Source: Chloroflexota bacterium
Lineage (GTDB): Bacteria; Chloroflexota; Anaerolineae; Anaerolineales; DRMV01
DNA: 34,881 nucleotides
Assembly: GCA_013154225.1 (NCBI GenBank)
Contig: JAADCW010000009.1
Span: 1 to 34,881 of the forward strand
Direction of reading: 5' to 3'
Part shown: positions 765 through 29,489 of the stretch, one piece after another
Numbering within the stretch: position 1 is the stretch's first letter
Layout: every line of letters begins with the position of its first letter
Notes under the pieces: generated by a model
What the model was told of the DNA's origin: nothing
The model's database searches: none
Seen by the model: only the letters and a program-made list of their open reading frames with translations
Position numbers and translations under genes: made by a program

Positions 765-5105
<4,341 letters not shown>

Positions 5106-5290
5106 GCAACAGCCTCCTGAAAATAGCGGTCGGCAAAACGGATTGGCCCTTAGCCCCCTGGTGTGAATTATTGGGAGTGTTTTTCGCTTGCGAAGGTGTA
5201 TAGACACATAAAAGCAAGCGCTTTGAGAATTCCCGCTCTCAAGCGCTCGCTCAAGCGTTTTTGCTCCGCTATTCCTCGCATGTTGCCCAC

Positions 5291-8300: not shown

Positions 8301-8654
8301 CCAAATGCCGACCACGCTGCCGCTGATGAGCGCGAGGATGACCGCCGGCCCTGTGCCAAGGAAGCCCGCGGCCAGCATCCATGTCAGCGAGGCAAAGGGC
8401 ACCAAAACTGGGACGGCTTCACCCAAGGGCGCGATGGTAGAACTGGGGCGGAAAAAGCCCCCCAAGGCGGCCAGCAAGGGGGTTAGGGCGAGCAGGACCA
8501 CGAACGCGGCTGCATGCGGCGCACGCCAGCGAGGATGTTGTGCACGGGCTTGGTAGATCAGACCCCCTAAAATCAGTATCCAAACTAACAGGAGGAGCCC
8601 GTTACTGAACGGCAGGAAGTAAGCGGTGCGGGAGAAAAGCCATTGCATGGTCAT
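5334..8654 (-). CDS. multi-TM sensor histidine kinase (N-terminal polytopic region, extracytoplasmic Cache-like region, HAMP, GAF, PAS, HisKA, HATPase_c)
   Basis: The ORF is 5334..8705. It carries the H-box FVATVSHDLRAPL, the N-box LHNLVDNAIKYT, G1 DTGVGI and G2 GTGLGLSIV. The HAMP-like segment is RLTRSLRELTQATESLASGQLDHALEINSMDEVGQLGQAFENM. I moved the start to the ATG at 8654 (MTMQWLF; 8648 is also possible) because promoter-like elements occupy 8667..8704. No response regulator is adjacent. Confidence 0.85.
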   Translation of the reverse strand: MTMQWLFSRTAYFLPFSNGLLLLVWILILGGLIYQARAQHPRWRAPHAAAFVVLLALTPLLAALGGFFRPSSTIAPLGEAVPVLVPFASLTWMLAAGFLGTGPAVILALISGSVVGIWGSHLTFEPFVQAVLALLFGWAIWQPYRERFYRLIRQPLIAAVLLTAIYPFLFIFGVLTLGNSPLAARVDYAFSHIGIFTLYKFIELLIAGVVAQIAHDKQKHLWGYHGPARLSSWSRSLHYKFLVVMAGIMGAVVIGILLGNWVMAQRSAREMLTERLSSTANIAAKSMPFFTENGDSLIRKLAHDEALWQEPSPQLNEYLHQLLTESFFFNEMLLVDAQGNTIASYPPNETLLAPERMYVLHFLASNEMQDAPIATHLTVTAPAPADASETSSGVKKALVVFAASLPLPQDQNLQGQNQEAPPEPRFLIGRASLGNNPYAEPIVKGLATLSNIGGGALILDNEHQILYATAPDMQWMETAISNDKLGPADIHSALGERYLAYTTQAVGSSWLIVVAAPARNLQEIALNNAWPLTLWVLMLSLVGVGITGLLLRRLTRSLRELTQATESLASGQLDHALEINSMDEVGQLGQAFENMRQRLRKRMDELNRLLQTSQRVAASLRVEDAAQAVLEAALASGATVARVALSPEALPDDWNDDYPLHFGKGLDADRYQSLDPQILPLVRSRSPLRLTNLEHSTTLQMPSGITPPKAILAVALQYEQRFLGVLYLIYNTPHTFTDEEVRYISTLAMQMAMAAYTARLYFMAEVRHQRLTAVINASPDPILVTDNQERLILANAAAFEQLPIQRQLNLPLEEAIQTEDLIQLLRRKDPPPYSAEITLNGRVYFATVASVRTSHHEVGRVCILRDVTHFKELDALKSEFVATVSHDLRAPLTLMRGYITMLEMVGELNERQKRYIQQIQQGVEDMTQLVNNLLDLGRIEAGVGLQPQLVSVLDVIEDITKRWQPRAQQKHITLRTDIAPDAPPLVEADPVLLDRALHNLVDNAIKYTPEGGTVTIFAKPAGDTGIILGVSDTGVGISPLDQPRLFEKFFRVVRRDQPKEKGTGLGLSIVKSIVERHHGRIWVESQLRQGSTFFIQLPLRQPKEDV

Positions 8655-8666
8655 GTCGCCTAAGGG

Positions 8667-8682
8667 TGCAAGTCGCGTGCCA
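8667..8682 (-). promoter_or_regulatory. sigma-54-type -24/-12 element (TGGCAC-N5-TTGCA) at the 5' end of the kinase gene
   Basis: The minus strand reads TGGCACgcgacTTGCA, an exact match to all 11 specified consensus positions, ending 12 nt before the ATG at 8654. Confidence 0.3.
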
Positions 8683-8695
8683 AGTAAACATTCCC

Positions 8696-8704
8696 ATTTT
8701 AACA
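8696..8704 (-). promoter_or_regulatory. extended -10 element upstream of the kinase gene
   Basis: The minus strand reads TGTTAAAAT. It overlaps the ATG of the longest ORF (8705) and would give a roughly 35-nt leader to the ATG at 8654. Confidence 0.35.
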
Positions 8705-8876
8705 TACCTCTTCGGGTTATGGTGCTCGCGGGCGGATAAAAATGGGGAACGCAGTGCTCTAAAGGGGCTCGGAAGCACAGGGAAGAAGGGGGCGCGGAGG
8801 CGTGGGATAATTCTGGGGGTTGGGCATTTTCTCCGTGGCCTCGGAGGCGGTTTTCTGCGCGAGGTTGCCCAACGCA

Positions 8877-8983: not shown

Positions 8984-9715
8984 CTAAAGCCACACAATGG
9001 TTTCCTGCGTGGCTTTGCTGAGGTCGGCATAATAGCCCCGCCGATGGGGCGGGAGCATGGCCGCCAGGATATACATGGCCTCGTCGGTCATCTGTTGCAG
9101 AAGTTTGCGGTTGGGGTTGCGCTCGGTGACGTTGAAGCGGAAAGGGCGGCCAAAGGTAATGCGCGCGCCTGGCTGCCACCAGCGCCGCGCGGTGGGAAAC
9201 GTGGGATACCCTTCGGTGTTATCCAGAGCCACAGGCACGACTGGCGATTGCGTGCGCGCGGCCAAATAGGCCATGCCCAATTTGCCCCGGATGAGGGCAG
9301 GGCTGCGGGTGCCTTCGGGCGCGATGAGCATGATTTCGTCCGCGTTGAGCACGGCCAGGGATTGCCGGATGGCCAGGAGGTCCATTTCCCCGCGCCAAAT
9401 GGGCACCACGCCCCACCAACGGGGCAAGCGGCCGATGAAAAAGTAATCCAGGGCTTCGGCTTTCATCATCGGCACGGCATCGCGTGGGCAGGCGTGCAGG
9501 GCAACCAGAGGATCAATGAAAGCAATGTGGTTGAACATAAGGATGGCGCGGCCTTCTTTGGGAATATTTTCCACACCTTCGACCGCGTCCAGCCGAGCCA
9601 GTAGTGTAAACCCCACCGTGCGCAACACCCAGCGCAAAAAGCGGCGCTTGGCGCGCCACGGACGGGGATCGTAGTGGGTGGTCCAGGGAACGTAAGATTT
9701 GGGCGTGGTGCTCAT
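8984..9715 (-). CDS. plsC: 1-acyl-sn-glycerol-3-phosphate acyltransferase family protein (PlsC-like)
   Basis: The 243-aa ORF has the acyltransferase motif I NHIAFID (HX4D) and motif III APEGTRS. Confidence 0.75.
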   Translation of the reverse strand: MSTTPKSYVPWTTHYDPRPWRAKRRFLRWVLRTVGFTLLARLDAVEGVENIPKEGRAILMFNHIAFIDPLVALHACPRDAVPMMKAEALDYFFIGRLPRWWGVVPIWRGEMDLLAIRQSLAVLNADEIMLIAPEGTRSPALIRGKLGMAYLAARTQSPVVPVALDNTEGYPTFPTARRWWQPGARITFGRPFRFNVTERNPNRKLLQQMTDEAMYILAAMLPPHRRGYYADLSKATQETIVWL

Positions 9716-9809: not shown

Positions 9810-10505
9810 TTACTCGTGCTCCGCGTCGAATTGCGCGATCAACTCCATCGCGCGTTGAAAAACCTGGTCGGCATCCAGGCCGTCGGTGTTGATGATGATG
9901 GCGTCTTCAGCCGGGCGCAGGGGGGATGCCTGGCGGTTGCGGTCCAGTTCATCGCGGTAATACACTGCCCGCAAGATTTGTTCGTAAGATGCAGGCTCCC
10001 CGCGGGCCAGGCGTTCCTTATAGCGCCGACGCGCACGCTCTTCGGGCGAGGCGTCGAGATAAATCTTCAGGTCGGCATCGGGCATAACCACGGTGCCAAT
10101 ATCTCGCCCGACCATCACCACTTTACCCCGCTGGCCAATTTCCCGCTGTTTGGCCAGCAGCGCGTGCCGCACACCCGGATGTGCAGCCACGGTCGAGACT
10201 TTGACATCCACTTCGGGGCTGTGAAGCGCCCAAGTGACATCTTCGCCATTGACCAGCACTTCGTATTTGCGGCCATCGTCCACACTGGGCGGGCGCACAT
10301 CAATGGTCAGATGGGTTGCCAGATCGGTCATGGCGTCCGCGTCTTCCACCGCGCGCCCGCGTTGCAGGGCAGCCCAGGTCACCGCGCGGTAAAGCACACC
10401 AGTATCAAAATAAAGATAGCCTAACGCTTCGGCCAGGCGTTGCGCCAGAGTAGATTTGCCAGAGGCCGCTGGGCCGTCAATGGCAATACGCTGCGGAAGG
10501 GACAT
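9810..10505 (-). CDS. cmk: cytidylate kinase
   Basis: The 231-aa ORF begins IAIDGPAASGKSTLAQRLAEALGYLYFDTGVLYRAV (P-loop) and shows Cmk-type collinearity, including MVGRDIGTVV. Confidence 0.92.
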   Translation of the reverse strand: MSLPQRIAIDGPAASGKSTLAQRLAEALGYLYFDTGVLYRAVTWAALQRGRAVEDADAMTDLATHLTIDVRPPSVDDGRKYEVLVNGEDVTWALHSPEVDVKVSTVAAHPGVRHALLAKQREIGQRGKVVMVGRDIGTVVMPDADLKIYLDASPEERARRRYKERLARGEPASYEQILRAVYYRDELDRNRQASPLRPAEDAIIINTDGLDADQVFQRAMELIAQFDAEHE

Positions 10506-10517: not shown

Positions 10518-12200
10518 TCAAGGTTGAGCTTGGGCCTGGGGGAAGAGGTCTTCCCTCGCCCATAAGATAACACTCGAACCCCCAGAAGGATGCTGTCGGA
10601 AAGCCAGCCAGCGCATCACAGCCCGCGCGTCGCCCAGGGGCCACAAAGGCGCGGCTGTGAGGGTGAAGTCTTGTCCGTAATAAGCGGTTTCAGTCTGGGA
10701 GGGGGTAAAGCCTTCAGGGGTAAGGATGGCTTCGGGATGTTCATCAGGCAGGAGGGCCAAGGCTTGACGGGCGTTGCTCAAATTGTGGAAAGCCCACGCG
10801 GTGGCTTTACTGCCTGTCAGGTCCACGAGTTGCAGGGCATCTCGACGGCCGTGGTGCCACAACCCCAAATCACCCACGGTTTGCTGAAGCAGGCGCATCT
10901 GGGCTGTGGTGGCGTGGGGATACCAGAGTTCTGCCTCGCGCGGGCCGTTGACCACGCGCATCGTAGCGGCCCACAGCAAGGCAACGCCTGCCAGTGTCAG
11001 TCCCCACGTCAGCCCGCCCCAGGCTTCCCGCCACGAACGCCCGACATCGCGCCACGAAATGGCCATCAGGCCGCTGACCACCACAAGCAGACCCAGGCTG
11101 ACCAACCCCAAAATCAGATTGAGGCGTGCGGTGGGGATGTTGGGCGCCGCGTTCCCCCAGGCCAGGAAATTGAACCAGGCAAAGGAGAGAATAGCCAAGG
11201 CCACTGCGGTTTGCCAGCCCAAATCTTTGGGGTGGGAAGTGGGCAACTGAGCTAACGCCCACGCGGCCACGCCCCACAATGGTATCAGCACCCAGACCAG
11301 GTCTTGGGGGGAGCGGCCAGGGTAGAACATGATGAGCAGGGCCGCACTCAGCGCGAGCCAGCCCAGCAGGGCAGGGAACGCGGCGCGGCGGTGGCCGGCC
11401 AAAGCCGCGCCGATGAGCCCTGCGCCCACAGCCAAAGGCGCGTAGGCGACCAACGCCAGCCCCAACAGGGCCAGGGGCGCGGCCTGCAGGGCCAGCAGCC
11501 CTCGGCCAAAGGCCAGCAGGCTGTTGAAAACCGCGCCAAAGCCTTCAGGGGCCCAAAAAGCCAAACTGCCCCCGAAAACCAGCACGCTCAGCGCCAGCCC
11601 AGCGCCCTGGCGGGCTTCCGCGGCCGAAAAGGGAATCCGAATTTCGTGGCCTGCAACCCGATAAAGGGCCAGCCCAAGCCCCAGGCTCAACAGCCCCAGC
11701 CAGAACGTGGGCCCCAAGAGCATCCCTGCCGCGGCCAGGGGAAGCGCCCAGCGCCAGCGGTTATGGGCCGCGGCCAACACCGCGGCGGTGAGGGCCAATG
11801 CCGCGGGAATGGGGCTGTTGGCCACCCGGGAGAGGGCCACCAACCCGGGATCCAAAGCCAGGGCAAAAGCCAGAATCAGCGCGCCGCGGCGACCCAAATA
11901 GGGCCGCAGGGGCCAGGCCAGCAAGGGGAGCAATCCGCCCAGAAGGGCTGGCACCAGGCGGGCAATCGCGTCGGTGCTGCCGAGCAAGAAGAAAGCCAGG
12001 CCGGTCAGCGCGGTCAGCAAAGGCGCTGAACCTAACGTGGTGGGGTGCCGCGCGGCAACATCCAGCGCCTGCAGCGCCAGTTGGGCTTCCTCTTCGCTCA
12101 AAGGGGCTTGCCCCAAATGCCACAACCGCACCCCAAAAGCCAGGGCAACGGCCGCGCCGTAGAGCAAGTGTTCCGTCGAAATGTGAGATGAGGTTTTCAT
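10518..12200 (-). CDS. polytopic membrane protein, GT-C / TIGR03663-like (PMT/ArnT-like) with a C-terminal soluble domain
   Basis: The 560-aa ORF has at least 10 hydrophobic segments. The first loop reads LGQAPLSEEEAQLAL, followed by LGSTDAIARLVPALLGG. This resembles the DE...G-s-D..aRl.pal.G pattern of PMT_2/ArnT-type glycosyltransferases, but with EE in place of DE. The gene starts 51 nt after the upstream gene ends, and cmk starts 12 nt after this gene. Confidence 0.6.
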   Translation of the reverse strand: MKTSSHISTEHLLYGAAVALAFGVRLWHLGQAPLSEEEAQLALQALDVAARHPTTLGSAPLLTALTGLAFFLLGSTDAIARLVPALLGGLLPLLAWPLRPYLGRRGALILAFALALDPGLVALSRVANSPIPAALALTAAVLAAAHNRWRWALPLAAAGMLLGPTFWLGLLSLGLGLALYRVAGHEIRIPFSAAEARQGAGLALSVLVFGGSLAFWAPEGFGAVFNSLLAFGRGLLALQAAPLALLGLALVAYAPLAVGAGLIGAALAGHRRAAFPALLGWLALSAALLIMFYPGRSPQDLVWVLIPLWGVAAWALAQLPTSHPKDLGWQTAVALAILSFAWFNFLAWGNAAPNIPTARLNLILGLVSLGLLVVVSGLMAISWRDVGRSWREAWGGLTWGLTLAGVALLWAATMRVVNGPREAELWYPHATTAQMRLLQQTVGDLGLWHHGRRDALQLVDLTGSKATAWAFHNLSNARQALALLPDEHPEAILTPEGFTPSQTETAYYGQDFTLTAAPLWPLGDARAVMRWLAFRQHPSGGSSVILWAREDLFPQAQAQP

Positions 12201-12251
12201 AGCGTTTGTTCGCGTGCCAAACAGGCCTGAGCGGGCGTATGCTTCAGGGCG

Positions 12252-14792
12252 TTAGGGCACAAAGTAAATTGTAACCTCGCCCTGCTGAAAATACACGGGC
12301 AGATGTTGATGGAATTTGTCTTCGTTGACCGCGTAGGTGTTGCGTTCCAGGGGCGCGACCACAATGTAGCGAATATGGTATTGGTCAATGATTTGTCGGG
12401 TGGTTTCCCAATCGCGAGCGGTGTAAAGGGTGGCAATGTCGGTTTCCCGACCTGCAAACAAAGCCGCGCCCCCGCGCCATTGGCTTTCGTGGCCAGGCCA
12501 TCCGAGCACAGTGGGCAGGCCGGTGTAGGTGCTGATGCGGGCATACTGGGTATAACTTCCGCCAACTGCCTCGGCTACCGTGCCCAACGGCGCATGGGAA
12601 AGCACCTGAATGGCCGCCCATTCGTCAGGCAGCTGGCGTTCCAGGTGCGCCCCTGCGTTCAGCGTCCACCCAAATGTGGGGTGGAAATTGTTGGTGCGGG
12701 AAGGCAAAGCCATCGCGGGATAGACCATCCCCGCGGCCAGGGCCAGAAAGCACGCAGTGGTGAGCACGGGCTGCCAGCGTTCTGTGCGCCGCAGGAGCCA
12801 GATAACCGCGTAGGCCGCGGCCAGCCCCCACAAAAGCCAGCCCTGGTAATAAAACTTGAACACCGTGTTCATGCGGGTGCCAAACTGATCCCGCAGATAC
12901 ACAAAATTAGGCGCGAGCACCAAAAGCGCGCCAAAAACCACCAGCAAAAGGGGGAACCCCGCCTGTTTGGCTTGGCTTTGGCTGGGTGTTGTGGCTTTGG
13001 TGGAGGCCAGCAAGCCCCAGGCCATGCCCAGCAAGGCGACCAGAGTCAACGTGCCCCAAGGGCTGCCCAGATGGCGGCGGAAGGCTGCGATGAGCAAGAT
13101 TTGCCACGACGAGGTGCCATTGACGCCCAGAAAGGCTTGCGATGCCTGAAGTAGGGTCAGATTGTCGAACGAACTGCCCAGCACGGGCAACAGCACCACA
13201 ATGCCCCAGGCCAGGATGAGGGCCAGCCCAAACAGCGCCAGAGCGACCCCCAAGGCGGTCAGCAAACCCGTGGTGAGCCGCGCCCGCCGCCGCAAAGCCT
13301 CTGCCCCCAACCACAAAAACAGGGGCACCAACAGCGGGCCAAACATGACCCAGAGTTGCGCGCCTCGGGTGGGATTGATGAGGTTGGGCAAAATGCCGCC
13401 AGCCTGTGAAGAAAAGCCCACATAGAACGGCAAATAGAGCACGCCCCCGGCCAGCCCCAAAGCCACCCCCAGCACGAGGAAGGATTTGACCTGGGAGAGC
13501 CACCCTTGCCAGCGTGCCTGGCGGGCGGCATGGGCCGCGGCAAATAAACCGACGTAGATGGGGAAGTCCCATGTGTTGAGGAAAGCCATCCCGCCCAGCA
13601 CCACCGCGGCCAGGATAAACGCGCCGCGGTTGAGGAAGATGTCATGAGTGATCCAATGGTACAGTGCCCGCACTTGCTGGAAGGCCAGCTGAAGCTCGGC
13701 GCGGATTTTCTCTTCCCAATGGCGCACGTGCCACCACGGGTAAGCCTCAGCATGGGAAAGGGGCGATACCGCGACCCAAGTGTTGGCGCGGGCAACCCTG
13801 CGGCTGCCGCCCAAATACAGATTCAAAGCCAGCCCCACGGCCAGCAGCGCAAAGGGGTAGGCCAACACGTGGGGGTGCAAATCGCCTAAGAGGTAGGAGA
13901 AGAAGGGGAATTCGTCAATGACTTCTTGTATTCCGCCGGCCAAGTTGCGATCGGTGACCACCCGCGACGCGCGCCACCACCACCAAAAGCGCTGGGGCGT
14001 CCACGCGGGCGGGGGCTGGGGGGCTGTGGCCAAATCTTTGATGTCCAGCCACTGCCAAAACGAGGGCGAAAACCAGCCGCGGGCGTGGAAGATTTCCAAC
14101 AGCCCTTCCCAGTTGCCTGTGATGGCCACGAAAAGAGGCCCAAAAAGGGCTGGCGCTGGGTTGCGTGGGCGGGCTAAGTCATACACAATGCCAAAAGCGC
14201 CTACCACGGTGAGGGCAAACACCGTGCTCAGCCCCAAATTGAAGGCAATGGTGCCGCTGATGCCCAGCAAGCGGGCGAGCATGGCCACCATCACATAGCC
14301 AAAATAGTAGTAGGAAATGGCATAGCCCGAAAGCCAGGGGTCGTGGGGCGGAAAAGTGGGGGAGCGCAAAATCGCGTTGATGAATGCCAGTTCCATGGGC
14401 TTTTCTGTGCCCACGGCTTCGGGCACGCACCCGCGCACATACACCCACAGCGCAAAAGCGGCCAAAAAGACGAGTTCTTCCCACAAAATCAGGTTTTTGT
14501 GGTTTTGCACCCAGCGTTTGAGCGCATGGCGTCGGGGCCAGGCAAGCGCCAGGCTGAGGGTTGCCAACAGCGCGGCGCTCCAGAGGATGCCGCCCGGTGT
14601 GTTGAAGGTCAGGTGCAGTGATGCCAGAAGCCAGAAAAAGTACCCCCACAGCAACAGCCCCAACGCCCGGCTGAGGGCATAACCGCGGTCAGGCAGGGCT
14701 GGGAGCAGGCGGTATGCCAGGGGAAAGGCAATCCATCCGGTGAGCAGGAGTGCCAGATACCATGCAATGGCAGCAGAAACCGAGCCCATCAT
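12252..14792 (-). CDS. DUF2298 / TIGR03662 'Chlor_Arch_YYY' family polytopic membrane protein (846 aa)
   Basis: The protein is highly hydrophobic. The signature block is EKPMELAFINAILRSPTFPPHDPWLSGYAISYYYFGY, with YYY codons at 14304..14312. The C-terminal block is YTGLPTVLGWPGHESQWRG...IRYIVVAPLER...IYFVP. Confidence 0.75.
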   Translation of the reverse strand: MMGSVSAAIAWYLALLLTGWIAFPLAYRLLPALPDRGYALSRALGLLLWGYFFWLLASLHLTFNTPGGILWSAALLATLSLALAWPRRHALKRWVQNHKNLILWEELVFLAAFALWVYVRGCVPEAVGTEKPMELAFINAILRSPTFPPHDPWLSGYAISYYYFGYVMVAMLARLLGISGTIAFNLGLSTVFALTVVGAFGIVYDLARPRNPAPALFGPLFVAITGNWEGLLEIFHARGWFSPSFWQWLDIKDLATAPQPPPAWTPQRFWWWWRASRVVTDRNLAGGIQEVIDEFPFFSYLLGDLHPHVLAYPFALLAVGLALNLYLGGSRRVARANTWVAVSPLSHAEAYPWWHVRHWEEKIRAELQLAFQQVRALYHWITHDIFLNRGAFILAAVVLGGMAFLNTWDFPIYVGLFAAAHAARQARWQGWLSQVKSFLVLGVALGLAGGVLYLPFYVGFSSQAGGILPNLINPTRGAQLWVMFGPLLVPLFLWLGAEALRRRARLTTGLLTALGVALALFGLALILAWGIVVLLPVLGSSFDNLTLLQASQAFLGVNGTSSWQILLIAAFRRHLGSPWGTLTLVALLGMAWGLLASTKATTPSQSQAKQAGFPLLLVVFGALLVLAPNFVYLRDQFGTRMNTVFKFYYQGWLLWGLAAAYAVIWLLRRTERWQPVLTTACFLALAAGMVYPAMALPSRTNNFHPTFGWTLNAGAHLERQLPDEWAAIQVLSHAPLGTVAEAVGGSYTQYARISTYTGLPTVLGWPGHESQWRGGAALFAGRETDIATLYTARDWETTRQIIDQYHIRYIVVAPLERNTYAVNEDKFHQHLPVYFQQGEVTIYFVP

Positions 14793-14799
14793 TGCTCTC

Positions 14800-17700
14800 T
14801 CATGGGGTGAGGGGTGAAAGCGGCGGCACTTCGTAGATGACTGTGTCGCCTATGCGGAAAACTTCGAACCAGTAGCGCCCGTTGTATTGGCTGAATTTGT
14901 TCAGCCCTGGGCCGGGGTAATAAGCGCGTTCCAACTGCCCCACGATGATGTAGCGGACGTTGTACTTGCGCAGGAAATCCAAAGCATGTTGGATGTCGGT
15001 GGTCATGTAGAAATCGTGCACTTCAGAGACCCGCTGTTCGACCCACAAGGCATTGACGACCCCGCGCTGTTGCCGCTGATGCCAGTTCCAACCCACAACG
15101 CCGGGCAAGCCGGTGTAGATGGTGAAGCGGGTGCCCCAGCGGTATTCCACAGTGTTGCCTTCCACAATCACGGGCGTACCTTCCGCGTGTTCCTGCAGCC
15201 AGCGGATGGCCGCGTAGTCCTGGGCGAGGTCCATGTCCTTGTTTTGGTCAAAGTAGTGGGCGTATTGCATGTAGGCCATGCCGTCCAGGGTATGAGGCGC
15301 TTCTGGGGCCATGCGGTCTTGCATTTTGGCCGCGCCGCCGATGATGGGGAAAAGGGCCGCGCTCCAGGCCAGCACCATGAGGGTCACACCCCACCATTGC
15401 CGCACGCGCGGGCGGTGATAGCACGCGCTGGCCACCAGGTCGCCCAGGGCCACAGCCGCGGAAATGCTGAACAAAGTCCATACCTGGAAATAGAATTTGA
15501 ACACTGTGTTCATGCGGGCAATATCGCCCTGAAGCACCACCAGTTCGACCACCAGGGTGAGCACCAGGCCGGTGCCAAACATGACCAGCACGATTTGTTC
15601 GGCCAGAGGGCGGCGAGGGCGCAGGAGCAGGGCGGCATCCCACGCGAGCAGGGGCACCACCAGCCAGGCAATCCGTACATGGAATGCTGCCAGACCCGCG
15701 GTAAGGGCAAAGGTCAACAGCAGGGCGATGGGCACGGTGTTGCGCCCAACTTTGGCCCACCAGCGCAGGCCTTCTACCGCGGGCGTTTCAGCCAGCCAGC
15801 GGCGGGTTTGCCACCACAGCCACGACACCAGCACAAACAGGAACAATCCCCAATGCACCAAATACGCGCTAATGGGGGTATGCGTGCCGCGCCAAAGGCT
15901 AAATTTGGTGTAGCCTTGGGCATACCAGTGGGCATAAGGCTGGTAGAACAGCAGGGAAGCCAGCACCAGCCAGGCCGCGGCAGCCACGGCTGCCCCCGCG
16001 CGGCGTTCCCACCGGCGATCTTTACGCGCGTGCCAGGCTGCATAGGCCGCGGCCAACATGCCCAGGCCCAAATAGGTAGGAAAGTCCCACGTGTTGGTAG
16101 GGCGCAGGGCGCCGATGATCAACCCGCCCCAGGCCAGAGAGCCAGCCCACCAACGCCAGTCTGTGCGGTGATGCCGCACCCACAACAGCAGGCCTACGGC
16201 CCAAAGTAGGGCCAGCACAGTCAGGCCCAAAGCCATCAGATGGGCGTGTAAGTCTGCATAGAGGAAAGTGAAGAAGGGGAACTCGGTAATAGGCTCGATT
16301 TCGCCCGGCGCGGGGATGGCGCGGCTGGGGAACCAATACCAATCGCCGATGCCGTAGGGCAGGTGCGAGCCTTTGAGGGTGTCGAGGAAGCCCAGCACAG
16401 CCCAGCCGATGTGTTTGAGCAGGCCGCCCTGGCTGATGTCGCCGCCGGGCGCGACCAGTTTCTGGAAGCCTTGCCAAATCATTTTGACCGTGCCCAGGTT
16501 GCCCAAAAGCACCATGCCCACAGCGCCGGCCAGGCCGACCAGCCGAGGAGAAAGCTCCCGTTTTCCCAGAGCGGCATACAGCCCCCGGGCCAGGGCAAAG
16601 GCGGTCAGGGCCACGGTGGCAAACAGGGTAGGCAGTACCAGGTTGTAGGCAAACGTGGGAGCCAGCCCCAGCAGTTTGACCGGCATCCCCACCAGCACAA
16701 AGCCCCAGTAGTAGTAGTTGATGTAGCCGCCGGCGAACCAGGGGTCGTAGGGCGGGAACGTGGTGCTTTTCAGCACCGCGGTGAAATACGACAAATCCAT
16801 GGGCTTTTCCCCGCCCTTCCAGGGGTGCCAGAGGTCGGGGTTTTGCCAGCGGATGTACAGATCCAGCAGGAAGAAGGCCAGGAAGAAAGCCTCAGCCCAG
16901 AGAATTTCCCGCTTACGGCGGCGCAAATCGTGCCAGATGTCTGGCCACTGCCGCCACGCCGCCCAGGCCGAAGCCGCGGCCAGGGCAAGCAAGATGCTCA
17001 ACAGAGCGCCTCGGGTTACGGCCAGGCCTGCACTGCCCCACAGCCAGGCCAGGTAGGCAAAGAGCAGCATACCTGCCAGCCGCGCCGCGGGGTAGCCGCC
17101 ATCGGGAAAAGCGGAGAAAAAGGGGCGCAACAGCGGCCATGCTATCCAGCCCAACAACATGATGAGCAGATACCAAGCCACCACCCCCAGCCCATGCCAG
17201 CGGTTGAGCGGGTTCCCTGAGGAAAAGAGCCGATGGAAGGTGCCGCTGATTTGTTGCAAGCCCCACCGGGCTGGCGGCAGAAGCAGATTGGCCGGATGCG
17301 GCGGCGCTTCGCCAGGCAAGACGTGCACCACCATGTCCAGGTTGACTGCATCCAGCACCGCGTGCACGTAACTGCGGTCGTAGTTGCTCCAGTTTTTGCG
17401 GAAGACAAATACTTTGGGGTGGTCGTAAACGGTAAAGGCTTCTTCGGCAGGCTGATCGTTGACCCGCACAGGCCCCAGCGAGGGGTCGGATTCAAAGATC
17501 GCGACCAAATCGTAGCCCAAATCGCCCTGATAGGTGCCCACCTGGGCGACGTTGTAGCAGTGTTCTACCGTTTCCCAGGGCGGGCAACCCAGCAAATGGC
17601 GGTAGTAGGCGTTTACCAGGGGGTAGCGCTCGGGCAGGCGGGGCAGGCTTCCCCATTGGCGGCTGGAAGTGATGAGGATGTAGTCCGCGCTGTCGAGGAT

Positions 17701-19641
17701 GCTTTCCATGCGGTTGCGCTTATCCGCGTTGTCGTCGTAATACATTTCAAAGTTCAACCCCTGATAGATGCCGCCAAAGGGGTCGTAACCGTCCATGCGA
17801 AGGGGCAGACCGTCGTCCCATGAGGTTTCGTTGGCAATGGCAGGCCCAAGCACCCGCACCTGGCCGCGGTCAATGCTCAGGGTAAGGGTGTAGGTTTCGC
17901 CTTCGGTGAGGGCAATAGGGGTTTGGAAGGTCAGCGCGAGGTTTTGGGGCGCCGCGGCAGGGTCGGGCAGGGGGTAAACTTCCGCGCTGGAAGTGCCCAG
18001 CGCCGTGTCTTGCCCCAGCGCGTGCAGGGTGGCTTTGATGGTGAGGGGCACTGCGCTGGCGGGCGTGGGCGCGGCCAGGCGGTAGAGGCGGATTTCCGGC
18101 AAGGTGCCGCTGGCGCGGGCGCGGAACGTCAGGGTGAGGGGCGTATCAGGGGTGATGTCGGGCAGTGCAGGTTGATCAGCGCCCCCGCGCGGCGGCACGG
18201 GCAGAAGTTGTGAGGTAACCTGCCCGTCGGGCGTGTGGATGGGCAGGGTGACCGGCCCGGGGATGTTTTGGAAGATCCACTCGGTCGCGGCAATGCGGGT
18301 GTGGGGGCGGTGATAAATGCTGACAAACCCAAACGCCCAGGCCGCGGTCAGGGCAAGCACTGCCCCGCCCCCGAGCCAGGCCAGCCATCTGCGCTTGCGC
18401 AGGCGTTCGGCAAGATGCACCCACAACCACGCGGCCATGATAGCCATGCCGGGGTACACCGGCAAAAGGTAGCGCATGGTGGGGTTCCACAGGGTGGACT
18501 GCCAGGCAAAGTAAAGCGCGGTCCACCCCCACAGCATCGCCACCGCGGCGTTTTCTTCTTGGCGCGCCAGCCGCCACCCCAGCCACAGGAAGCCCGCCCA
18601 CGCGCTCAGCCCCAAAGGTAAACCCAGTCCCCAAAGGGTGAGGTTTTGCCCTGCAAACCAAATGGGGCGCCGTGCCCACTGCATCGCGGGGGGGAAGTCT
18701 GCACTTCCACTGGCCTGGGCTTTGAGCGCGCGCAGGTTGTCGAGCCATTGGGGGTTGATGCCGCTAAAAAAGCCCGGCCCGCTGAACGCATAAGGTTGGA
18801 AAATGCGGAAAGTAAGCAGGGCGGTAAAGCCGCTCAGCCCCAACAGGCCAAAGAGCCAGGGCGTTTCTTTGCGCTGGGTGTCTGCATCTTGCCGGGCAAA
18901 ACGCACAAGCGCGGCCACAGGAAGCAAAACAGCCACAGGCGCGGCGCTGATTTTGGATGCCATGGCCGCACCATAGGCGACACCAAAGGCCACAAAAAGC
19001 CATGTGTCAGCACGAAGCGGGCGCCGCGCGGGTTTGCGCACGATTTCGATGGCCAAAAGCAGGCTGAGGAAGGTGAAAAGATTGAAGAAATTGTCCACTG
19101 TGAAGAAGTGGGATTGCTGAATTTCCATCACAGTGAACGCGGAGAAGGCCGCGGCCAGCAAGCCGACGCGGCGGTCAAAGAGCCGCGCGGCCAAAACATA
19201 CACCAAAAAGACCAGCAGAAGATCGGCCAAGGCAGAAAGCGCCCGGCCAACCAGGTGGATTTGTCCGTAACCGGTTTTGTGGAGCAGTTCGCCCACGTAG
19301 CGGGTGATGAAGAGGGGAAGGGTGCCGTAAACGTAGAAGCCAAACCCTTGGTTCGCGGGGTTGAGGCTGGAATGGGCGGTGTCGAAGTATTCCCCCAGGC
19401 TGTGCACAGGCTGGATGGCGCTTGCGACCATGGTCAAGAAGCGCTCGTCAGGGTGCAGGTGCTGTTCGCCATCCCAGGCGATGCCTGTGGTGCGCAGGTA
19501 GAGCCCCAGGAGGAGGACCACCACCAGCGCGGCTTCGTATAGCCAGATGGGGAGCGCGCCGCGGCGCGGGCGCGTGGCCGTTTGCACCGTGGGGGCAGGC
19601 GCTTCGTCAGGGGATGGAGAAAGCGGGTTAGCGTTCGTCAT
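14800..19641 (-). CDS. 1613-aa fusion protein: N-terminal GT-C-like module, central extracytoplasmic domain and C-terminal DUF2298/YYY module
   Basis: Residues about 30-445 (nt 18307..19554) are polytopic, with first-loop HLHPDERF (19438..19455). Residues about 455-815 (nt 17197..18279) are non-hydrophobic. Residues about 817-1613 (nt 14803..17193) are collinear with the 846-aa neighbour. They carry EKPMDLSYFTAVLKSTTFPPYDPWFAGGYINYYYWGF (YYY codons 16708..16716), YTGLPGVVGWNWHQRQQRG and VRYIIVGQLER...VIYEVP. Confidence 0.8.
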   Translation of the reverse strand: MTNANPLSPSPDEAPAPTVQTATRPRRGALPIWLYEAALVVVLLLGLYLRTTGIAWDGEQHLHPDERFLTMVASAIQPVHSLGEYFDTAHSSLNPANQGFGFYVYGTLPLFITRYVGELLHKTGYGQIHLVGRALSALADLLLVFLVYVLAARLFDRRVGLLAAAFSAFTVMEIQQSHFFTVDNFFNLFTFLSLLLAIEIVRKPARRPLRADTWLFVAFGVAYGAAMASKISAAPVAVLLPVAALVRFARQDADTQRKETPWLFGLLGLSGFTALLTFRIFQPYAFSGPGFFSGINPQWLDNLRALKAQASGSADFPPAMQWARRPIWFAGQNLTLWGLGLPLGLSAWAGFLWLGWRLARQEENAAVAMLWGWTALYFAWQSTLWNPTMRYLLPVYPGMAIMAAWLWVHLAERLRKRRWLAWLGGGAVLALTAAWAFGFVSIYHRPHTRIAATEWIFQNIPGPVTLPIHTPDGQVTSQLLPVPPRGGADQPALPDITPDTPLTLTFRARASGTLPEIRLYRLAAPTPASAVPLTIKATLHALGQDTALGTSSAEVYPLPDPAAAPQNLALTFQTPIALTEGETYTLTLSIDRGQVRVLGPAIANETSWDDGLPLRMDGYDPFGGIYQGLNFEMYYDDNADKRNRMESILDSADYILITSSRQWGSLPRLPERYPLVNAYYRHLLGCPPWETVEHCYNVAQVGTYQGDLGYDLVAIFESDPSLGPVRVNDQPAEEAFTVYDHPKVFVFRKNWSNYDRSYVHAVLDAVNLDMVVHVLPGEAPPHPANLLLPPARWGLQQISGTFHRLFSSGNPLNRWHGLGVVAWYLLIMLLGWIAWPLLRPFFSAFPDGGYPAARLAGMLLFAYLAWLWGSAGLAVTRGALLSILLALAAASAWAAWRQWPDIWHDLRRRKREILWAEAFFLAFFLLDLYIRWQNPDLWHPWKGGEKPMDLSYFTAVLKSTTFPPYDPWFAGGYINYYYWGFVLVGMPVKLLGLAPTFAYNLVLPTLFATVALTAFALARGLYAALGKRELSPRLVGLAGAVGMVLLGNLGTVKMIWQGFQKLVAPGGDISQGGLLKHIGWAVLGFLDTLKGSHLPYGIGDWYWFPSRAIPAPGEIEPITEFPFFTFLYADLHAHLMALGLTVLALLWAVGLLLWVRHHRTDWRWWAGSLAWGGLIIGALRPTNTWDFPTYLGLGMLAAAYAAWHARKDRRWERRAGAAVAAAAWLVLASLLFYQPYAHWYAQGYTKFSLWRGTHTPISAYLVHWGLFLFVLVSWLWWQTRRWLAETPAVEGLRWWAKVGRNTVPIALLLTFALTAGLAAFHVRIAWLVVPLLAWDAALLLRPRRPLAEQIVLVMFGTGLVLTLVVELVVLQGDIARMNTVFKFYFQVWTLFSISAAVALGDLVASACYHRPRVRQWWGVTLMVLAWSAALFPIIGGAAKMQDRMAPEAPHTLDGMAYMQYAHYFDQNKDMDLAQDYAAIRWLQEHAEGTPVIVEGNTVEYRWGTRFTIYTGLPGVVGWNWHQRQQRGVVNALWVEQRVSEVHDFYMTTDIQHALDFLRKYNVRYIIVGQLERAYYPGPGLNKFSQYNGRYWFEVFRIGDTVIYEVPPLSPLTP

Positions 19642-19664
19642 AGGCTGTACCCATGGGGTGAGGC

Positions 19665-21872
19665 TTACGGCACGTAGAACATGAGGAAATCTTTCCCTGG
19701 CGTGGGGCTGTGGTAGAGCCGCACCACGCCGTTGGGGTAGAGGTGCTGGAGTTTGTCCAGGGTTTCGGCGTCTTCGGGTTTGACAATGAACAACTTGGGC
19801 GGTGGCACGTTGAGGGTGCTTTCCAGCTGTTCCCGCGGCAGTGCCAAATCGGTAATTTCAGGGAAGAGCCCCGCGTTGATGGCTACCAAACGGGTGTCCA
19901 CCCAATAGGGATAAGGCACAACCCAAACCGCGTGGGGATTGCCGCCTTCAGCCACAAATTCGTGGATCACCGCGCCAATTTCCGACGTGTTCCATGAGCC
20001 CAGACGGAATTCATCGGCATATTGATGGAAGACCAGGTCGTAATTTGCCCGGGCGGCCACCAGCGCGAGCACCGCGATCATGCCCACGCCCAGCCATTGC
20101 CCCAGCCGCGGCCGCCAGTCGCGTAAGGCCTGGCGCAGTGCATCCGCGCCCATCCCTACGATGACGAACACCGGAATGTAGGCCGCGCCCGTGCGGTTGA
20201 GAGAGGGGTTTTCGTTGGGAAAGGCCAGCGAGAGGATGGACGGCAGCATGAGCAGGGGGATGCTGATGACCAGGAACGCGTCTTCCCACGTTTTGCGGCG
20301 GCTGTAGCGCAGCACGGCCACAGTCAGCCCCAGGGCATACAGGGCCGCGGTCACCCAATCGAGCGCAGGCCGATGGGGCACGGAATGTACCCAGATTTCG
20401 CCGTTGTCCCAAAAGGGCATGAGCCAGGCTTTGAAGAGGTTGGAGAAGAAGATGACCACCGGGTTGCCGGGGTAGGGGCGTTCCAACTGCCCCAGGCGGG
20501 TGGCTCCCCGATAGAAGAACATATCCCAATGCCCCAGCATGTAGCGGAACAAGGGCAAAAAGACCATGAACGAGAGGAGCGCGGTCAAAGCCAGGCCGAT
20601 AAGGGCGCGTTTGCGGCGGTCGGTTTCCCGCTGGTGCAGCAGGAAGAGGGCCACGCCCGCCAGCAGGGTGATGGGGATCATCCGCGAGGGGGAGTAGCCG
20701 TGCACGCCAATGCCCAGGAAAATGCCTGCCCAGATGAAATCGTTGCGCCGTCCGTGGCGCAAGCCGCGCACAAAGAAATACAGGGTCGGCGCGGCAAAGG
20801 CAGGGTAGAGGGCAAAGCGCAAAGCCACCCGAGCGATGACGTTAGGCCAATAAGCAAACGAAGCAAACAACACCGCCCAGAAGCCTACCCATTTGCCGCC
20901 CAGTTCCTTGCCCAATAAGTAAACGAAGGGCAAAGTGAGCAACCCCATGGTGGTCATGCCGATTTTCAGGCTCAGGAAAGAGAAGCCAGTGCCCAGGCAT
21001 TTGATGATGCACGCGGTGAGGTACATCTGGATGGCTTCGCGGCCGGTGTTGCGGGGGAAGAAGATGCGGGTTTTGCCCGCGAGCACGTCCGCGATGTCGA
21101 GGAGTTTTTCCGCATGGTCGGAAAACATCTCCGCGGGCACGCTTGCAAGATGCAGGTAGCGGAAGTAGAGGGCAATCACGGCCACGCCCAGCAGCGCGGC
21201 GCACCACGCGGGCTGACAGCGCCACGGTTTTTGACGCCGAGGCGGGGCATAAAAGGCCGCGGCAGTGAAGCCCACACTGCTCAGCCAGAGCAAGGTGTTG
21301 AAAAGGATGAAGCGGTTGTTTCCAAAGGCGGCAAAAGCCCAAGCCCCCAAGATGATGCCCAGAGCCAATGGAATGACGCGCACCCGCACCGGGCCTTCGG
21401 CGTCGGCTTCCCATTGGGCGGGTGCCAGATCGGGAATGCGCCACGAGCCCCGCAGGGCTGCCCAGCCCCATGCGGCCAGGGCCAGGGCGTAGGCAATGAT
21501 GCCGAGTTGCCAGTTGCGCCCCGGCGGCTCCATGACCCGCTGGGCCAGCAAGGCCATGCCAAACCCCAACAGAAGCGCCAGAGGAAAGGCCGCACGCGGC
21601 GGCGTGGACGCGGGCTGTGGTGGGGTTTCTTCCACGGATGCGGTGGCTTCCTGCGCGGTGAGGGTTGCTTCGGTAGGCGGGGAAGGCGTTTCTGTGATGG
21701 GAAGGCGGGCTTCGTCGTTGGTTTGCGGGCTTTCCTGGTCGGCCAATGCGGCCTGCCACAGCTGGGCTGCGGCTTCGTCGGAAAGCGGCCGCCACCCCCT
21801 GGGGCGAAGTTCCCGAGGAAGATGGGCTGCCAGACGCCCTTTGATGTAATCCAAGAGGCTGAGGTCGGTCAT
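19665..21872 (-). CDS. GT-C family (PMT_2/ArnT-like, GT39-like) polytopic membrane glycosyltransferase candidate (735 aa)
   Basis: This lies within ORF 19665..22094. I trimmed it to the ATG at 21872 (MTDLSLLDYIKG), which sits 2 nt after the methyltransferase stop and has GAGG 6 nt upstream. The N-terminal ~95 aa form a Pro/Thr/Glu/Ala-rich tail, followed by at least 11 hydrophobic segments. The loop motif is VPAEMFSDHAEKLLDIADVLAG...NTGREAIQMYL. The C-terminal soluble domain ends FLMFYVP. Confidence 0.65.
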   Translation of the reverse strand: MTDLSLLDYIKGRLAAHLPRELRPRGWRPLSDEAAAQLWQAALADQESPQTNDEARLPITETPSPPTEATLTAQEATASVEETPPQPASTPPRAAFPLALLLGFGMALLAQRVMEPPGRNWQLGIIAYALALAAWGWAALRGSWRIPDLAPAQWEADAEGPVRVRVIPLALGIILGAWAFAAFGNNRFILFNTLLWLSSVGFTAAAFYAPPRRQKPWRCQPAWCAALLGVAVIALYFRYLHLASVPAEMFSDHAEKLLDIADVLAGKTRIFFPRNTGREAIQMYLTACIIKCLGTGFSFLSLKIGMTTMGLLTLPFVYLLGKELGGKWVGFWAVLFASFAYWPNVIARVALRFALYPAFAAPTLYFFVRGLRHGRRNDFIWAGIFLGIGVHGYSPSRMIPITLLAGVALFLLHQRETDRRKRALIGLALTALLSFMVFLPLFRYMLGHWDMFFYRGATRLGQLERPYPGNPVVIFFSNLFKAWLMPFWDNGEIWVHSVPHRPALDWVTAALYALGLTVAVLRYSRRKTWEDAFLVISIPLLMLPSILSLAFPNENPSLNRTGAAYIPVFVIVGMGADALRQALRDWRPRLGQWLGVGMIAVLALVAARANYDLVFHQYADEFRLGSWNTSEIGAVIHEFVAEGGNPHAVWVVPYPYWVDTRLVAINAGLFPEITDLALPREQLESTLNVPPPKLFIVKPEDAETLDKLQHLYPNGVVRLYHSPTPGKDFLMFYVP

Positions 21873-21874
21873 GG

Positions 21875-22675
21875 CTAACCTCGGCGGCGGGCAATGTAGA
21901 AGGTATAAGCACCTTCGGGGTGTTTGGGGTTTTCGTAGAGCGGTCGCAGGCGGCGTTCCAGCCAGCCGAGATTCCAGCGTGTGGGCGCGAGAATCCAACG
22001 CCCGGTGAGTTTTTTGGCAATCAGGCTGGGAAGGCCAAAATAGTGGCCCCATTCCAAAATGTGAAGGGCTTTGGGTGGGAAGTAATGCCACCATGTGACG
22101 ACTTCAAAGCCAGTCCGATCAAGGCGGGCTTCCCACGTGGCGGGGGCGTCGCAGTGATGGTGGCGGGAAATGCGGTTGAAGAAAGCGCGGTACGCGTCGC
22201 CCAAGGGGCGTAGGCCGATTTTGTCCAACGCGCGGCCGATGGAAAGGTTGGGCAGGAAGTTGTGATTGGGCACGCAAAAATAGAAAGGCGCGCCGGGCTG
22301 AAGCACGCGCGCGGTTTCGGCCAGGACGGCATCCAGATGGGGGATGTGTTCCAGCACCGAGTTGGAGACCGCGCTGGCAAACGTGGCATCGGGAAAGGGC
22401 ATGGCCGCACCGTCGGCCTGCACCAGCAGGCGGTAGGCCTGACCGTGCTTATGGCGGGCTTCGCGGAGCGGTGCCCACCACGGGTCCAAACCTACATCCA
22501 GAGGGCGCTCGAAGGTGCGCGCGGCAAAATGCCCGTCGCCACAGCCCAGGTCTAACGTGGGTTGTGGAAGCGGCAGGTCTTGATAGAATGAGGCTTCCAC
22601 CGCGCGCAGGAAGGCGCGGAAGTAGGGAAGTTCGCGAAGTTGGGGGAAAAGGTAATCTTTACGCTCAGTGGGCAT
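21875..22675 (-). CDS. class I SAM-dependent methyltransferase
   Basis: The 266-aa ORF has motif I LDLGCGDGHFAA and a post-I acidic residue (VGLDP). It has Methyltransf_11-like collinearity and is the first gene of the operon. Confidence 0.8.
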   Translation of the reverse strand: MPTERKDYLFPQLRELPYFRAFLRAVEASFYQDLPLPQPTLDLGCGDGHFAARTFERPLDVGLDPWWAPLREARHKHGQAYRLLVQADGAAMPFPDATFASAVSNSVLEHIPHLDAVLAETARVLQPGAPFYFCVPNHNFLPNLSIGRALDKIGLRPLGDAYRAFFNRISRHHHCDAPATWEARLDRTGFEVVTWWHYFPPKALHILEWGHYFGLPSLIAKKLTGRWILAPTRWNLGWLERRLRPLYENPKHPEGAYTFYIARRRG

Positions 22676-22904: not shown

Positions 22905-22937
22905 GGCTTTTGCTTCGGCACGACTGCATAAACAACA

Positions 22938-22963
22938 AGCGGCACCGGAAACGGTGCCGCTTG
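22938..22963 (-). terminator. rho-independent terminator of aspS
   Basis: The stem aagcggcaccg (22938..22948) pairs with cggtgccgctt (22953..22963) around a gaaa loop. On the minus strand it is followed by GTTGTTTAT, 37 nt after the aspS stop. Confidence 0.6.
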
Positions 22964-24845: not shown

Positions 24846-24938
24846 CGAGAGGGGGCGAATGCGTGAGCAAAGGCGCAAAGGTTATTTTATAATAGGCAGT
24901 GTTGTTTGCCCGCGCATTGTCATTTGAGGAGAGGAGCC

Positions 24939-27502: not shown

Positions 27503-27543
27503 GATTTTCTCTCCTTCCTTGAGATTGGCGGGTAAGTGCAAGC

Positions 27544-27572
27544 ATTGTAAGGGATTTGCCATTGGGAAGCAA
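27544..27572 (-). promoter_or_regulatory. sigma-70 promoter of the 205-aa hypothetical gene
   Basis: The minus strand reads TTGCTT (27572..27567), a 17-nt spacer, then TACAAT (27549..27544). Confidence 0.5.
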
Positions 27573-28140: not shown

Positions 28141-28153
28141 GCTGAGTGAAGGT

Positions 28154-29458: not shown

Positions 29459-29489
29459 AGGGGGAACCTCCTCAGGGTTGTGTTGAGCA

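Follow-up and report, generated by a model that had tools for sequence, protein, structure and literature searches.

The window examined here is the whole of a 34,881-nucleotide (nt) stretch with about 60% G+C, positions 1 to 34,881 of the forward strand of contig JAADCW010000009.1 (assembly GCA_013154225.1), from a member of the Anaerolineales in the phylum Chloroflexota. An earlier note on this DNA had singled out five co-directional open reading frames (ORFs) on the minus strand, running from position 22675 to position 10518, and all five were present at the coordinates given there. They encode a methyltransferase (MT) and four membrane proteins, here called P2, P3, P4 and P5, which appear to comprise five modules of the GT-C glycosyltransferase fold, two of them belonging to the functionally unassigned family DUF2298. 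Taken together, the data presented below suggest that the cluster probably acts outside the cytoplasm on a glycoconjugate of the cell envelope. The five genes and the parts of P3 are as follows.

21875 to 22675, minus strand: MT, 266 amino acids (aa), the first gene of the run
19665 to 21872, minus strand: P2, 735 aa
14800 to 19641, minus strand: P3, 1613 aa
18307 to 19641, minus strand: N-terminal module of P3 (P3N), about residues 1-445, predicted GT-C of the PMT_2/PMT type
17200 to 18306, minus strand: middle region of P3, about residues 446-814, a non-membrane domain
14800 to 17199, minus strand: C-terminal module of P3 (P3C), about residues 815-1613, DUF2298/TIGR03662, a paralogue of P4
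12252 to 14792, minus strand: P4, 846 aa
10518 to 12200, minus strand: P5, 560 aa

The intergenic gaps of 2, 23, 7 and 51 nt, counted in order from MT to P5, were reproduced, and the membrane proteins P2 to P5 sum to 3754 aa, in agreement with the previous figure of about 3750 aa. The start of P2 was set at position 21872, because in 26 homologues the N-terminus is conserved and aligns with the one read from this codon, MTDLSLLDYIKGRL; the JGI gene call for P2, on the metagenome contig to which the window belongs (Ga0072504_122501, sample 3300005095), is likewise 735 aa. A longer P2 of 809 aa, taken from the longest ORF with a start at 22094, was rejected, as the conserved N-terminus of the homologues favors 21872.

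The family searches proposed in the earlier note placed P3C and P4 well above the curated cut-offs of DUF2298 and of TIGR03662 ('Chlor_Arch_YYY'). P3C scored 383 bits and P4 375 bits against DUF2298 (PF10060; Pfam cut-off 27.8), with E-values of 3e-114 and 1e-111 that are far beyond chance, and the corresponding TIGR03662 scores were 513 and 498 bits (cut-off 300). An hhalign comparison of P3C with the P4 family gave E = 1e-97 at about 30% identity, indicating at the sequence level that the two modules are paralogues. The motifs EKPM[DE]L, PPxDPW and YYY, as well as the positions of the YYY codons (16708-16716 in P3 and 14304-14312 in P4), were found just as they had been described. In P4 these motifs stand at residues 130, 151 and 161, and in P3C we located EKPM at 945, DPW at 966, YYY at 976, DLHAH at 1130, RMNT at 1376 and GWNWHQRQQR at 1517. 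The YYYxG motif reads INYYYWG in P3 (residue 976) and ISYYYFG in P4 (residue 161). All three tyrosines Y976-Y978 are invariant in the P3 family; the P4 family keeps Y161 and Y162 without exception, with Y163 conserved in less than 90% of members. The invariant blocks of DUF2298, in P4 numbering, comprise T129-E-K-P-M, P148-P-x-D-x-W and S160-Y-Y in the N-terminal part, D293-E-x-P-x-F-S...D304-L-H-P-H further on, and R640-x-N-T-x-F-K-x-Y and W765...H768...Q771-W in the C-terminal part, the last of these lying in the C-terminal domain.

At E <= 1e-3 the DUF2298 profile matched 9,290 cluster representatives (clustered at 50% identity), and at E <= 1e-30 it matched 4,452, so that the former picture of a small family no longer holds and the family is now far larger than its description suggests. 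Architectures with two DUF2298 copies or with TPR repeats, which belong to that description, were found again in the representative library. In the literature searched, no function was assigned to DUF2298, to TIGR03662 or to this gene cluster, as the earlier note had supposed for this gene set, and no functional study of a GT-C protein in Chloroflexi was found. Two papers mention DUF2298 in passing, and one of them shows a DUF2298-PMT2 neighborhood in another Chloroflexi genome. Papers on a "YYY domain" were set aside, because their subject is the Y_Y_Y domain found in hybrid two-component sensors, which is unrelated. Membership in DUF2298 therefore says nothing about mechanism, since the family has no assigned function.

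Searches of the PDB with a DUF2298 profile, or with P2, P3, P4 and P5 as single sequences, returned no match, and the fold was approached with predicted structures. The AlphaFold2 model of P4, built with 54 homologues, had a predicted local distance difference test (pLDDT) score of 88.4 and a predicted template modeling (pTM) score of 0.91. When the model was compared with the PDB by Foldseek, GT-C enzymes took six of the first seven places, with probabilities of 0.97-1.0: DPY19, a C-mannosyltransferase, in three entries (best E = 1e-4), AftA, an arabinosyltransferase, in two chains (best E = 9e-4), and PglB (E = 1.4e-2). The seventh place went to an unrelated pyrophosphatase at a probability of 0.16. 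The C-terminal domain of P4, about 140 residues long, matched the C-terminal globular domain of archaeal AglB with a probability of 1.0, at E = 0.1-0.3 and a TMt of about 0.5. No significant match to the P4 model was found by Foldseek in a library of viral structures. On the basis of the model, P4 is predicted to consist of a GT-C fold followed by a small C-terminal globular domain, and P3C is predicted to be a GT-C module by its homology to P4. Because the global template modeling (TM) scores of P4 against solved enzymes are low, as detailed below, the model places DUF2298 on a distant and separate GT-C branch, outside every solved family.

A confident model was likewise obtained for P5 (pLDDT 92.4, pTM 0.92), and both models thus bore out the expected GT-C fold. 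The 32 best PDB matches of P5 were all GT-C-fold proteins, with TM scores up to 0.63. The top match was ArnT (E = 8e-8, TM 0.55-0.57), and further matches included ALG12 (TMt 0.63), ALG9, STT3, PglB, Pmt4, Emb, PimE, AftB/D and PIG-U; all of these are enzymes except PIG-U (8imx_U, 7w72_U), which is a non-catalytic subunit. P5 is accordingly modeled as a GT-C-fold protein. It had no Pfam match, including to PMT_2 and Agl23_C (PF26681), and a PDB profile search yielded a weak PIG-M match alone (E = 0.003). An hhalign comparison of P5 with P3 showed no link, and that with P2 a weak one (probability 29%). Against TIGR03663, P5 scored 55.8 bits over residues 16-158 alone, below the cut-off of 126.25. 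All 53 aligned members of the P5 family match TIGR03663 at E <= 1e-3 (best E 3e-39), which argues at the sequence level that P5 is a divergent relative of the TIGR03663/Agl23 family even though it falls below the cut-off itself. The P5 family is small, with 75 database proteins mostly from metagenome contigs; its named close members are hypothetical proteins of Anaerolineales/Anaerolineae, and its distant tail consists of proteins annotated as TIGR03663.

TIGR03663 now takes its name from the Haloarcula hispanica protein Agl23, a putative hexose-phosphodolichol flippase; purified Agl23 moved Man5GlcNAc2-PP-dolichol across liposome membranes, and a yeast rft1 deletion was rescued (PMC11182771). 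P5 is predicted to act on lipid-linked sugars, as either their transferase or their flippase. The earlier statement that the window holds no flippase becomes doubtful, because Agl23, the sole characterized relative of P5, has flippase activity in vitro. We rejected P5 as an Agl23 orthologue, since it scores below the cut-off, lacks Agl23_C, and the haloarchaeal Agl23 loci inspected have no DUF2298 neighbor.

The other two modules are of the PMT_2 type. P2 is a polytopic protein scoring 39.3 bits against PMT_2 (PF13231; gathering score 26.1); its N-terminal segment, which is cytoplasmic, is conserved, and its C-terminal tail is soluble. P3N scored 45-46 bits against the same model, and when the N-terminal 810 aa of P3 were scanned alone, 35.1 bits against the PMT family PF02366 (cut-off 22.7), a cut-off that none of the other proteins reached. 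MIR domains were matched in no protein. STT3 had no Pfam match, TIGR04154 reached just 29.6 bits of the required 450 on P3N, and the WWDxG motif was absent from all four membrane proteins. An hhalign comparison of P2 with P3N gave a probability of 90% and E = 1.5e-6, with the SDHAEK motif of P2 paired with the HPDERF motif of P3, showing that the two modules are homologous. By their PMT_2 membership both are assigned to GT-C, and P3-like proteins are labeled in databases as "phospholipid carrier-dependent glycosyltransferase", "GT39" or "ArnT family". The middle region of P3 contains 371 residues in a row without hydrophobic segments and gave no Pfam match and no PDB sequence match. It contains many invariant residues, including C686, C695 and the AEEAFTVYDHPK block, and is probably extracytoplasmic. 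The two paired motifs lie at the following positions.

21105 to 21122, minus strand: SDHAEK motif of P2, residues 251-256, a candidate catalytic acid in the predicted first external loop
19438 to 19455, minus strand: HPDERF motif of P3, residues 63-68

These two motifs, together with SEEEA of P5 (residues 35-39), had been named in the earlier note, and all three were present, HPDERF at the very position reported. Alignments of 27-54 homologues revealed that each family keeps invariant acidic residues: D252 in P2; D65, E945, D949 and D966 in P3; E130 and D151 in P4; and E38 in P5. In P2, D252 is invariant in 27 homologues and E255 is conserved in at least 90%; in P3, 28 homologues share H63, P64 and D65 without exception. 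The invariant acid of each family sits in a loop that follows a hydrophobic or transmembrane helix. According to a hydropathy and charge count, the helices ahead of the acidic-motif loops have their other end at a loop rich in lysine and arginine (K/R). In P2, the loop upstream of the hydrophobic segment that precedes SDHAEK is K/R-rich, which would place SDHAEK on the outside. Because K/R-rich loops thus lie opposite the motif loops across the membrane, the active sites are predicted to face outward, and the charge distribution suggests that the acidic residues lie in the first long extracytoplasmic loop. All five membrane modules can be assigned to GT-C, since P4 and P5 were modeled, P2 and P3N are PMT_2 members, and P3C is homologous to P4.

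MT is a class-I S-adenosylmethionine-dependent methyltransferase (Methyltransf_11, E = 8e-15, with additional matches to Methyltransf_23, 25, 12 and 31) that reached the cut-off of no NCBIfam equivalog. The hydropathy count detected no hydrophobic segment in it, and MT is a cytoplasmic protein.

We then compared the gene order around P4 homologues in 80 genome loci, all from Chloroflexota metagenome-assembled genomes and nearly all labeled Anaerolineae or Chloroflexota. Upstream content was scored in the 42 loci with at least 9 kb of upstream sequence, and downstream content in the 55 loci whose downstream sequence reached 4.5 kb or more. P2 and P3 lay upstream of the P4 homologue in 31 of the 42 loci, which confirms that the block is kept across Anaerolineales, and an MT gene was found upstream of P2 in 24 of these 31. 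Downstream of the P4 homologue, cmk was found in 41 of the 55 loci, a detectable P5 homologue in 32 and plsC in 32. The loci that did not carry the full set were mostly from Brevefilum-like genomes with a lone DUF2298 gene. The closest relative, locus L001, is collinear with the window from aspS to rpoC. Metagenome-assembled genomes assigned to Anaerolinea and Leptolinea are among the carriers of the block (loci L027, L039, L053 and L061). In locus L055 (1159-1977) an FkbM/RfbT-like methyltransferase gene stands in place of the Methyltransf_11 gene; this looks like a non-orthologous replacement and fits a role in sugar O-methylation.

Of the 16 loci whose upstream sequence was long enough, 14 had a GT4 glycosyltransferase gene directly upstream of the methyltransferase gene, and in total about 34 loci did so (examples are L061:1343-3579, L021:138-2007 and L064:126-1283). 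In five loci, where the upstream sequence reached far enough, a RmlB/GalE-like epimerase/dehydratase of the SDR family preceded GT4. The unit found in most relatives, (epimerase)-GT4-MT-P2-P3-P4-P5, is ancestral-looking, and the window and L001 carry aspS and a terminator where relatives have GT4. The previous claim that no nucleotide-sugar glycosyltransferase accompanies the cluster is thus true of the window but not of most of its relatives, and the lack holds for the lineage of the window only, because most relatives carry the upstream GT4. In many relatives a small DUF952-like gene of about 120 aa lies between the P3 and P4 homologues (L012:8873-9840 and L010:9025-10004, for example), often followed by a GNAT acetyltransferase of about 200 aa; in the window this gap is 7 nt. 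The genes between P3 and P4 in relatives had been considered as a candidate donor synthase, and this was discarded in view of their assignment to the DUF952-like protein and the acetyltransferase.

All 27 full-length P3 homologues retain its fusion of PMT_2 to DUF2298. The representative library contains proteins of about 2,430-2,450 aa (P0399 and P0420 are among the giant fusions) in which PMT_2 is joined to two DUF2298 modules, corresponding to P3 fused to P4, and L078:4151-11380 encodes a 2,409-aa fusion version in a locus with three DUF2298 modules before P4. A further protein of 2713 aa, P0436, carries two DUF2298 modules and C-terminal TPR repeats. The PMT_2-DUF2298 fusions are good evidence that both types of module work together.

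The boundaries of the run were assessed from gene spacing and a scan for terminator-like sites, and the following neighboring features are relevant.

22936 to 22963, minus strand: terminator-like hairpin after aspS, 12-bp stem (9 G-C pairs) followed by a T-rich tail
9810 to 10505, minus strand: cmk (cytidylate kinase), Cytidylate_kin E = 4e-72
8984 to 9715, minus strand: plsC-type acyltransferase, PF01553 E = 5e-19, a syntenic neighbor

The aspS gene ends at 23000, leaving a gap of 324 nt to MT in which the hairpin lies (22963-22936) and the remainder is untranslated. This hairpin was the strongest terminator-like site in the scan of the region, and it likely marks the upstream boundary of the transcription unit; inside the run from MT to P5 the same scan showed no strong terminator. 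The earlier description of a five-gene operon was correct as to the tight run, but not as to its end at P5, because cmk begins 12 nt after the P5 stop codon on the same strand, and the scan listed no terminator-like site in this gap. The transcription unit thus likely extends from MT to P5 and includes at least cmk. A further 94 nt separate cmk from plsC, followed by a gene for a large HAMP-GAF-PAS histidine kinase and then by rpoC, all on the same strand. Both cmk and plsC are kept downstream of the block across Anaerolineales, and a link to the supply of a lipid anchor or a CDP-activated precursor is conceivable.

Two large sensor proteins flank the region. One is the HAMP-GAF-PAS histidine kinase (5334-8705, minus strand, 1123 aa), which is syntenic with the cluster in many relatives, and the other is a CHASE2-adenylate/guanylate cyclase (24906-26792, plus strand) encoded divergently from aspS. 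The rpoC product (765-5207, minus strand, 1480 aa) is interrupted around residues 1150-1270 by a stretch matching Peptidase_M23/biotin-lipoyl-like hybrid motifs, probably a lineage-specific insertion of the beta-prime subunit. Two thioredoxin-reductase-like flavoproteins (Pyr_redox_2) are encoded in tandem, 15 nt apart, at 30623-31561 and 31577-32551 on the minus strand. The ORFs at 28133-30526 (plus strand, 797 aa), 33065-34165 (minus strand, 366 aa) and 26885-27562 (minus strand, 225 aa) matched nothing in Pfam or NCBIfam under the thresholds applied. The G+C-rich window contains many long antisense ORFs that are spurious, such as that at 750-5069 on the plus strand opposite rpoC.

Among known systems, the nearest functional analogy would be the mycobacterial pathway in which GT4 enzymes (PimA/B) act with GT-C enzymes (PimE, Mpt, Emb, Aft), and embCAB offers the nearest example of giant GT-C genes in tandem. 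As in embCAB and the Aft, Mpt and PimE systems, several very large GT-C genes stand in a row and polytopic cores are combined with extracytoplasmic soluble domains. The logic of the Aft/Mpt/PimE system, in which a cytoplasmic GT4 (PimA/PimB) primes a lipid anchor before GT-C extension, resembles that of the relatives carrying GT4, and AftA, EmbB, EmbC, PimE, AftB and AftD are among the fold matches of P4 and P5. In contrast to embCAB/Aft, the cluster has no Pfam match to Arabinose_trans or GT87, its motif sets differ, and the phylum is Chloroflexota, in which we know of no arabinogalactan or lipoarabinomannan (LAM).

Other comparisons concern single modules. P3C and P4 are clear members of DUF2298/TIGR03662, with scores above the cut-offs and the YYYxG motif. 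P5 resembles Agl23 in that its N-terminal ~150 residues match the TIGR03663 model and its gene adjoins DUF2298 genes, an arrangement that TIGRFAMs notes for the two families. Unlike Agl23, P5 reaches 55.8 bits of the 126 required and lacks Agl23_C, and three distinct haloarchaeal Agl23 neighborhoods (four loci) contained no DUF2298 neighbor. With ArnT and the PMT_2/GT39-GT83 enzymes the cluster shares the PMT_2 membership of P2 and P3N, the match of P5 to ArnT and an acidic motif in the predicted first external loop, but its modules are fused to and clustered with DUF2298, and it has no adjacent GT2 or GtrA gene and no MIR domain. The likeness to STT3, AglB and PglB (GT66) lies in the GT-C fold and in the presence of STT3 and PglB among the P5 matches, and the P4 C-terminal domain may resemble the minimal C-terminal domain of AglB (E = 0.1-0.3); the STT3 Pfam match and WWDxG are missing and the global TM is low.

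Building on the observed fold, family membership, motif conservation, synteny and gene fusions, we consider it probable, with moderate confidence, that the cluster forms an outward-facing GT-C assembly line, which would use polyprenyl-phosphate sugars to lengthen or branch one glycoconjugate of the envelope. A cytoplasmic phase would come first, in which MT, together with GT4 in most relatives and sometimes a sugar epimerase/dehydratase, may prime or modify, probably by O-methylation, the glycan or a lipid-linked precursor. The five GT-C modules, of the PMT_2 type (P2, P3N), the DUF2298 type (P3C, P4) and the Agl23-like type (P5), would then draw sugars from polyprenyl-phosphate carriers at the outer face of the membrane and add successive or differently linked sugars to a single cell-envelope glycoconjugate of Anaerolineales. 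The invariant acid of each module may bind a metal or act as the catalytic base, by analogy with ArnT, PMT and PglB, and the DUF2298 set EKPM, PPxDPW, YYY, DEFPFF..DLHxH, RMNTxFKFY and GWxxHxxQxR may form the binding sites for donor phosphate and acceptor. P5 might supply a flipped lipid-linked sugar like Agl23, instead of or besides transferring one. In this proposal the type of donor, the topology, the cooperation of the modules and the role of MT are inferred.

An alternative is that the cluster glycosylates proteins, with P2 and P3N O-glycosylating serine or threonine residues of secreted or surface proteins and the DUF2298 modules forming a new oligosaccharyl- or glycosyltransferase on protein, whose small C-terminal domain would bind the acceptor as in AglB/PglB. 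That P3N exceeds the threshold of PF02366, the protein O-mannosyltransferase family, fits this view, but P2 and P3 lack MIR domains, no STT3 Pfam match was found, and P3 and P4 lack WWDxG. P4 has two protein-modifying enzymes, DPY19 and PglB, in the top group of its fold matches, but AftA, which has a glycan acceptor, matches it equally well, and the best match of P5, ArnT, has a lipid acceptor. The match of the P4 C-terminal domain to the AglB globular domain (probability 1.0, TMt ~0.5) would suit an acceptor-binding role; against it stands an E-value of 0.1-0.3. TPR repeats accompany TMTC-type protein O-mannosyltransferases among GT-C enzymes, and some DUF2298 proteins, such as P0436, end in such repeats; the GT4 and sugar epimerase genes upstream in relatives fit the synthesis of a glycan or glycolipid at least equally. 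On balance, protein glycosylation appears unlikely to be the function of the cluster.

The modules might also be independent decorators, each adding a single side-branch sugar to a polymer made elsewhere, as do GtrABC, CsbB/YfhO and ArnT in three-component glycosylation, and be neighbors through duplication only. Characterized bacterial PMT_2-type proteins are mostly such single-sugar decorators, ArnT is the closest solved structure to P5, and the paralogous pairs P2/P3N and P3C/P4 would fit duplication followed by divergence, as would the varying number of modules, from the lone DUF2298 of Brevefilum-like genomes to the three before P4 in L078. Against this, PMT_2 recurs as a covalent fusion partner of either one or two DUF2298 modules, and the whole set is kept in strict sequence across a bacterial order, both of which speak for joint action. 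Three-component systems also usually have adjacent GT2/GtrA-type partner genes, and none was found in the neighboring genes scanned; we regard independent decoration as quite unlikely. It seems highly improbable that the proteins are non-catalytic members of the fold, serving as lipid-linked-sugar scramblases or scaffolds in the manner of Agl23 and the GPI-transamidase subunit PIG-U. An invariant acid is kept in every module, in the loop that holds GT-C catalytic residues, and the DUF2298 loops contain unusually many invariant polar residues, as is typical of an active site. The precedents concern P5, whose sole characterized relative moves lipid-linked oligosaccharide across liposome membranes (PMC11182771) and whose fold matches include PIG-U, but P5 lacks Agl23_C and falls below the TIGR03663 cut-off.

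Several observations weigh against the assembly-line proposal. In the window and the related loci we found no GT2 polyprenyl-phosphate sugar synthase, initiating phosphoglycosyltransferase or Wzx/ABC exporter, nor a chain-length regulator, whose absence from the window had been stated before; the pathway is incomplete as seen, since these components are missing. GT4 and epimerase genes are absent from the whole window and from its closest relative L001 as well. The global TM scores of P4 to solved GT-C structures are low (0.26-0.46; best E = 1e-4), hhalign detected no sequence link of DUF2298 to the PMT_2-type P2 or to P5, and the literature searched contains no characterized DUF2298 enzyme. 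The topology comes from a crude hydropathy and charge count with overlapping segments and is used qualitatively. Co-transcription is deduced from gene spacing, and the promoter scan performed at chance level (4 found versus 3.9 expected). The conserved gene order beside the housekeeping genes cmk, plsC and rpoC could in part reflect lineage inertia.

The assembly-line proposal can be carried further, as a tentative and less probable version. DUF2298 would then be a functionally new GT-C family acting as the obligate partner of a PMT_2-type module, and the product of the GT4-MT-P2-P3-P4-P5 block would be the chief envelope polymer of Anaerolineales apart from peptidoglycan. It would be a methylated lipoglycan or wall glycan, comparable to mycobacterial lipomannan (LM)/LAM or arabinogalactan, and would account for the outer envelope layers of Chloroflexota, so far chemically undefined; in this version P5 would serve as a bacterial flippase of the Agl23 type, acting on the lipid-linked donor. 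A GT-C glycosylation cluster is a known kind of system, and nothing in this one is mechanistically surprising so far; at its core stands a large uncharacterized GT-C family with its own motif set, architecture and partner.

The envelopes of Chloroflexota are atypical and multilayered. In the literature read, their outer layers are described only as "polysaccharides or proteins" (PMC13319060), and the cluster, being syntenic in most of the Anaerolineales genomes inspected, provides a concrete genetic handle on this envelope question. The link between P5 and Agl23 offers a bacterial system in which GT-C-fold proteins can be tested as flippases of lipid-linked sugars. With an activity assigned to DUF2298, thousands of genes in bacteria and archaea could be annotated, and the GT-C catalogue would probably gain a family.

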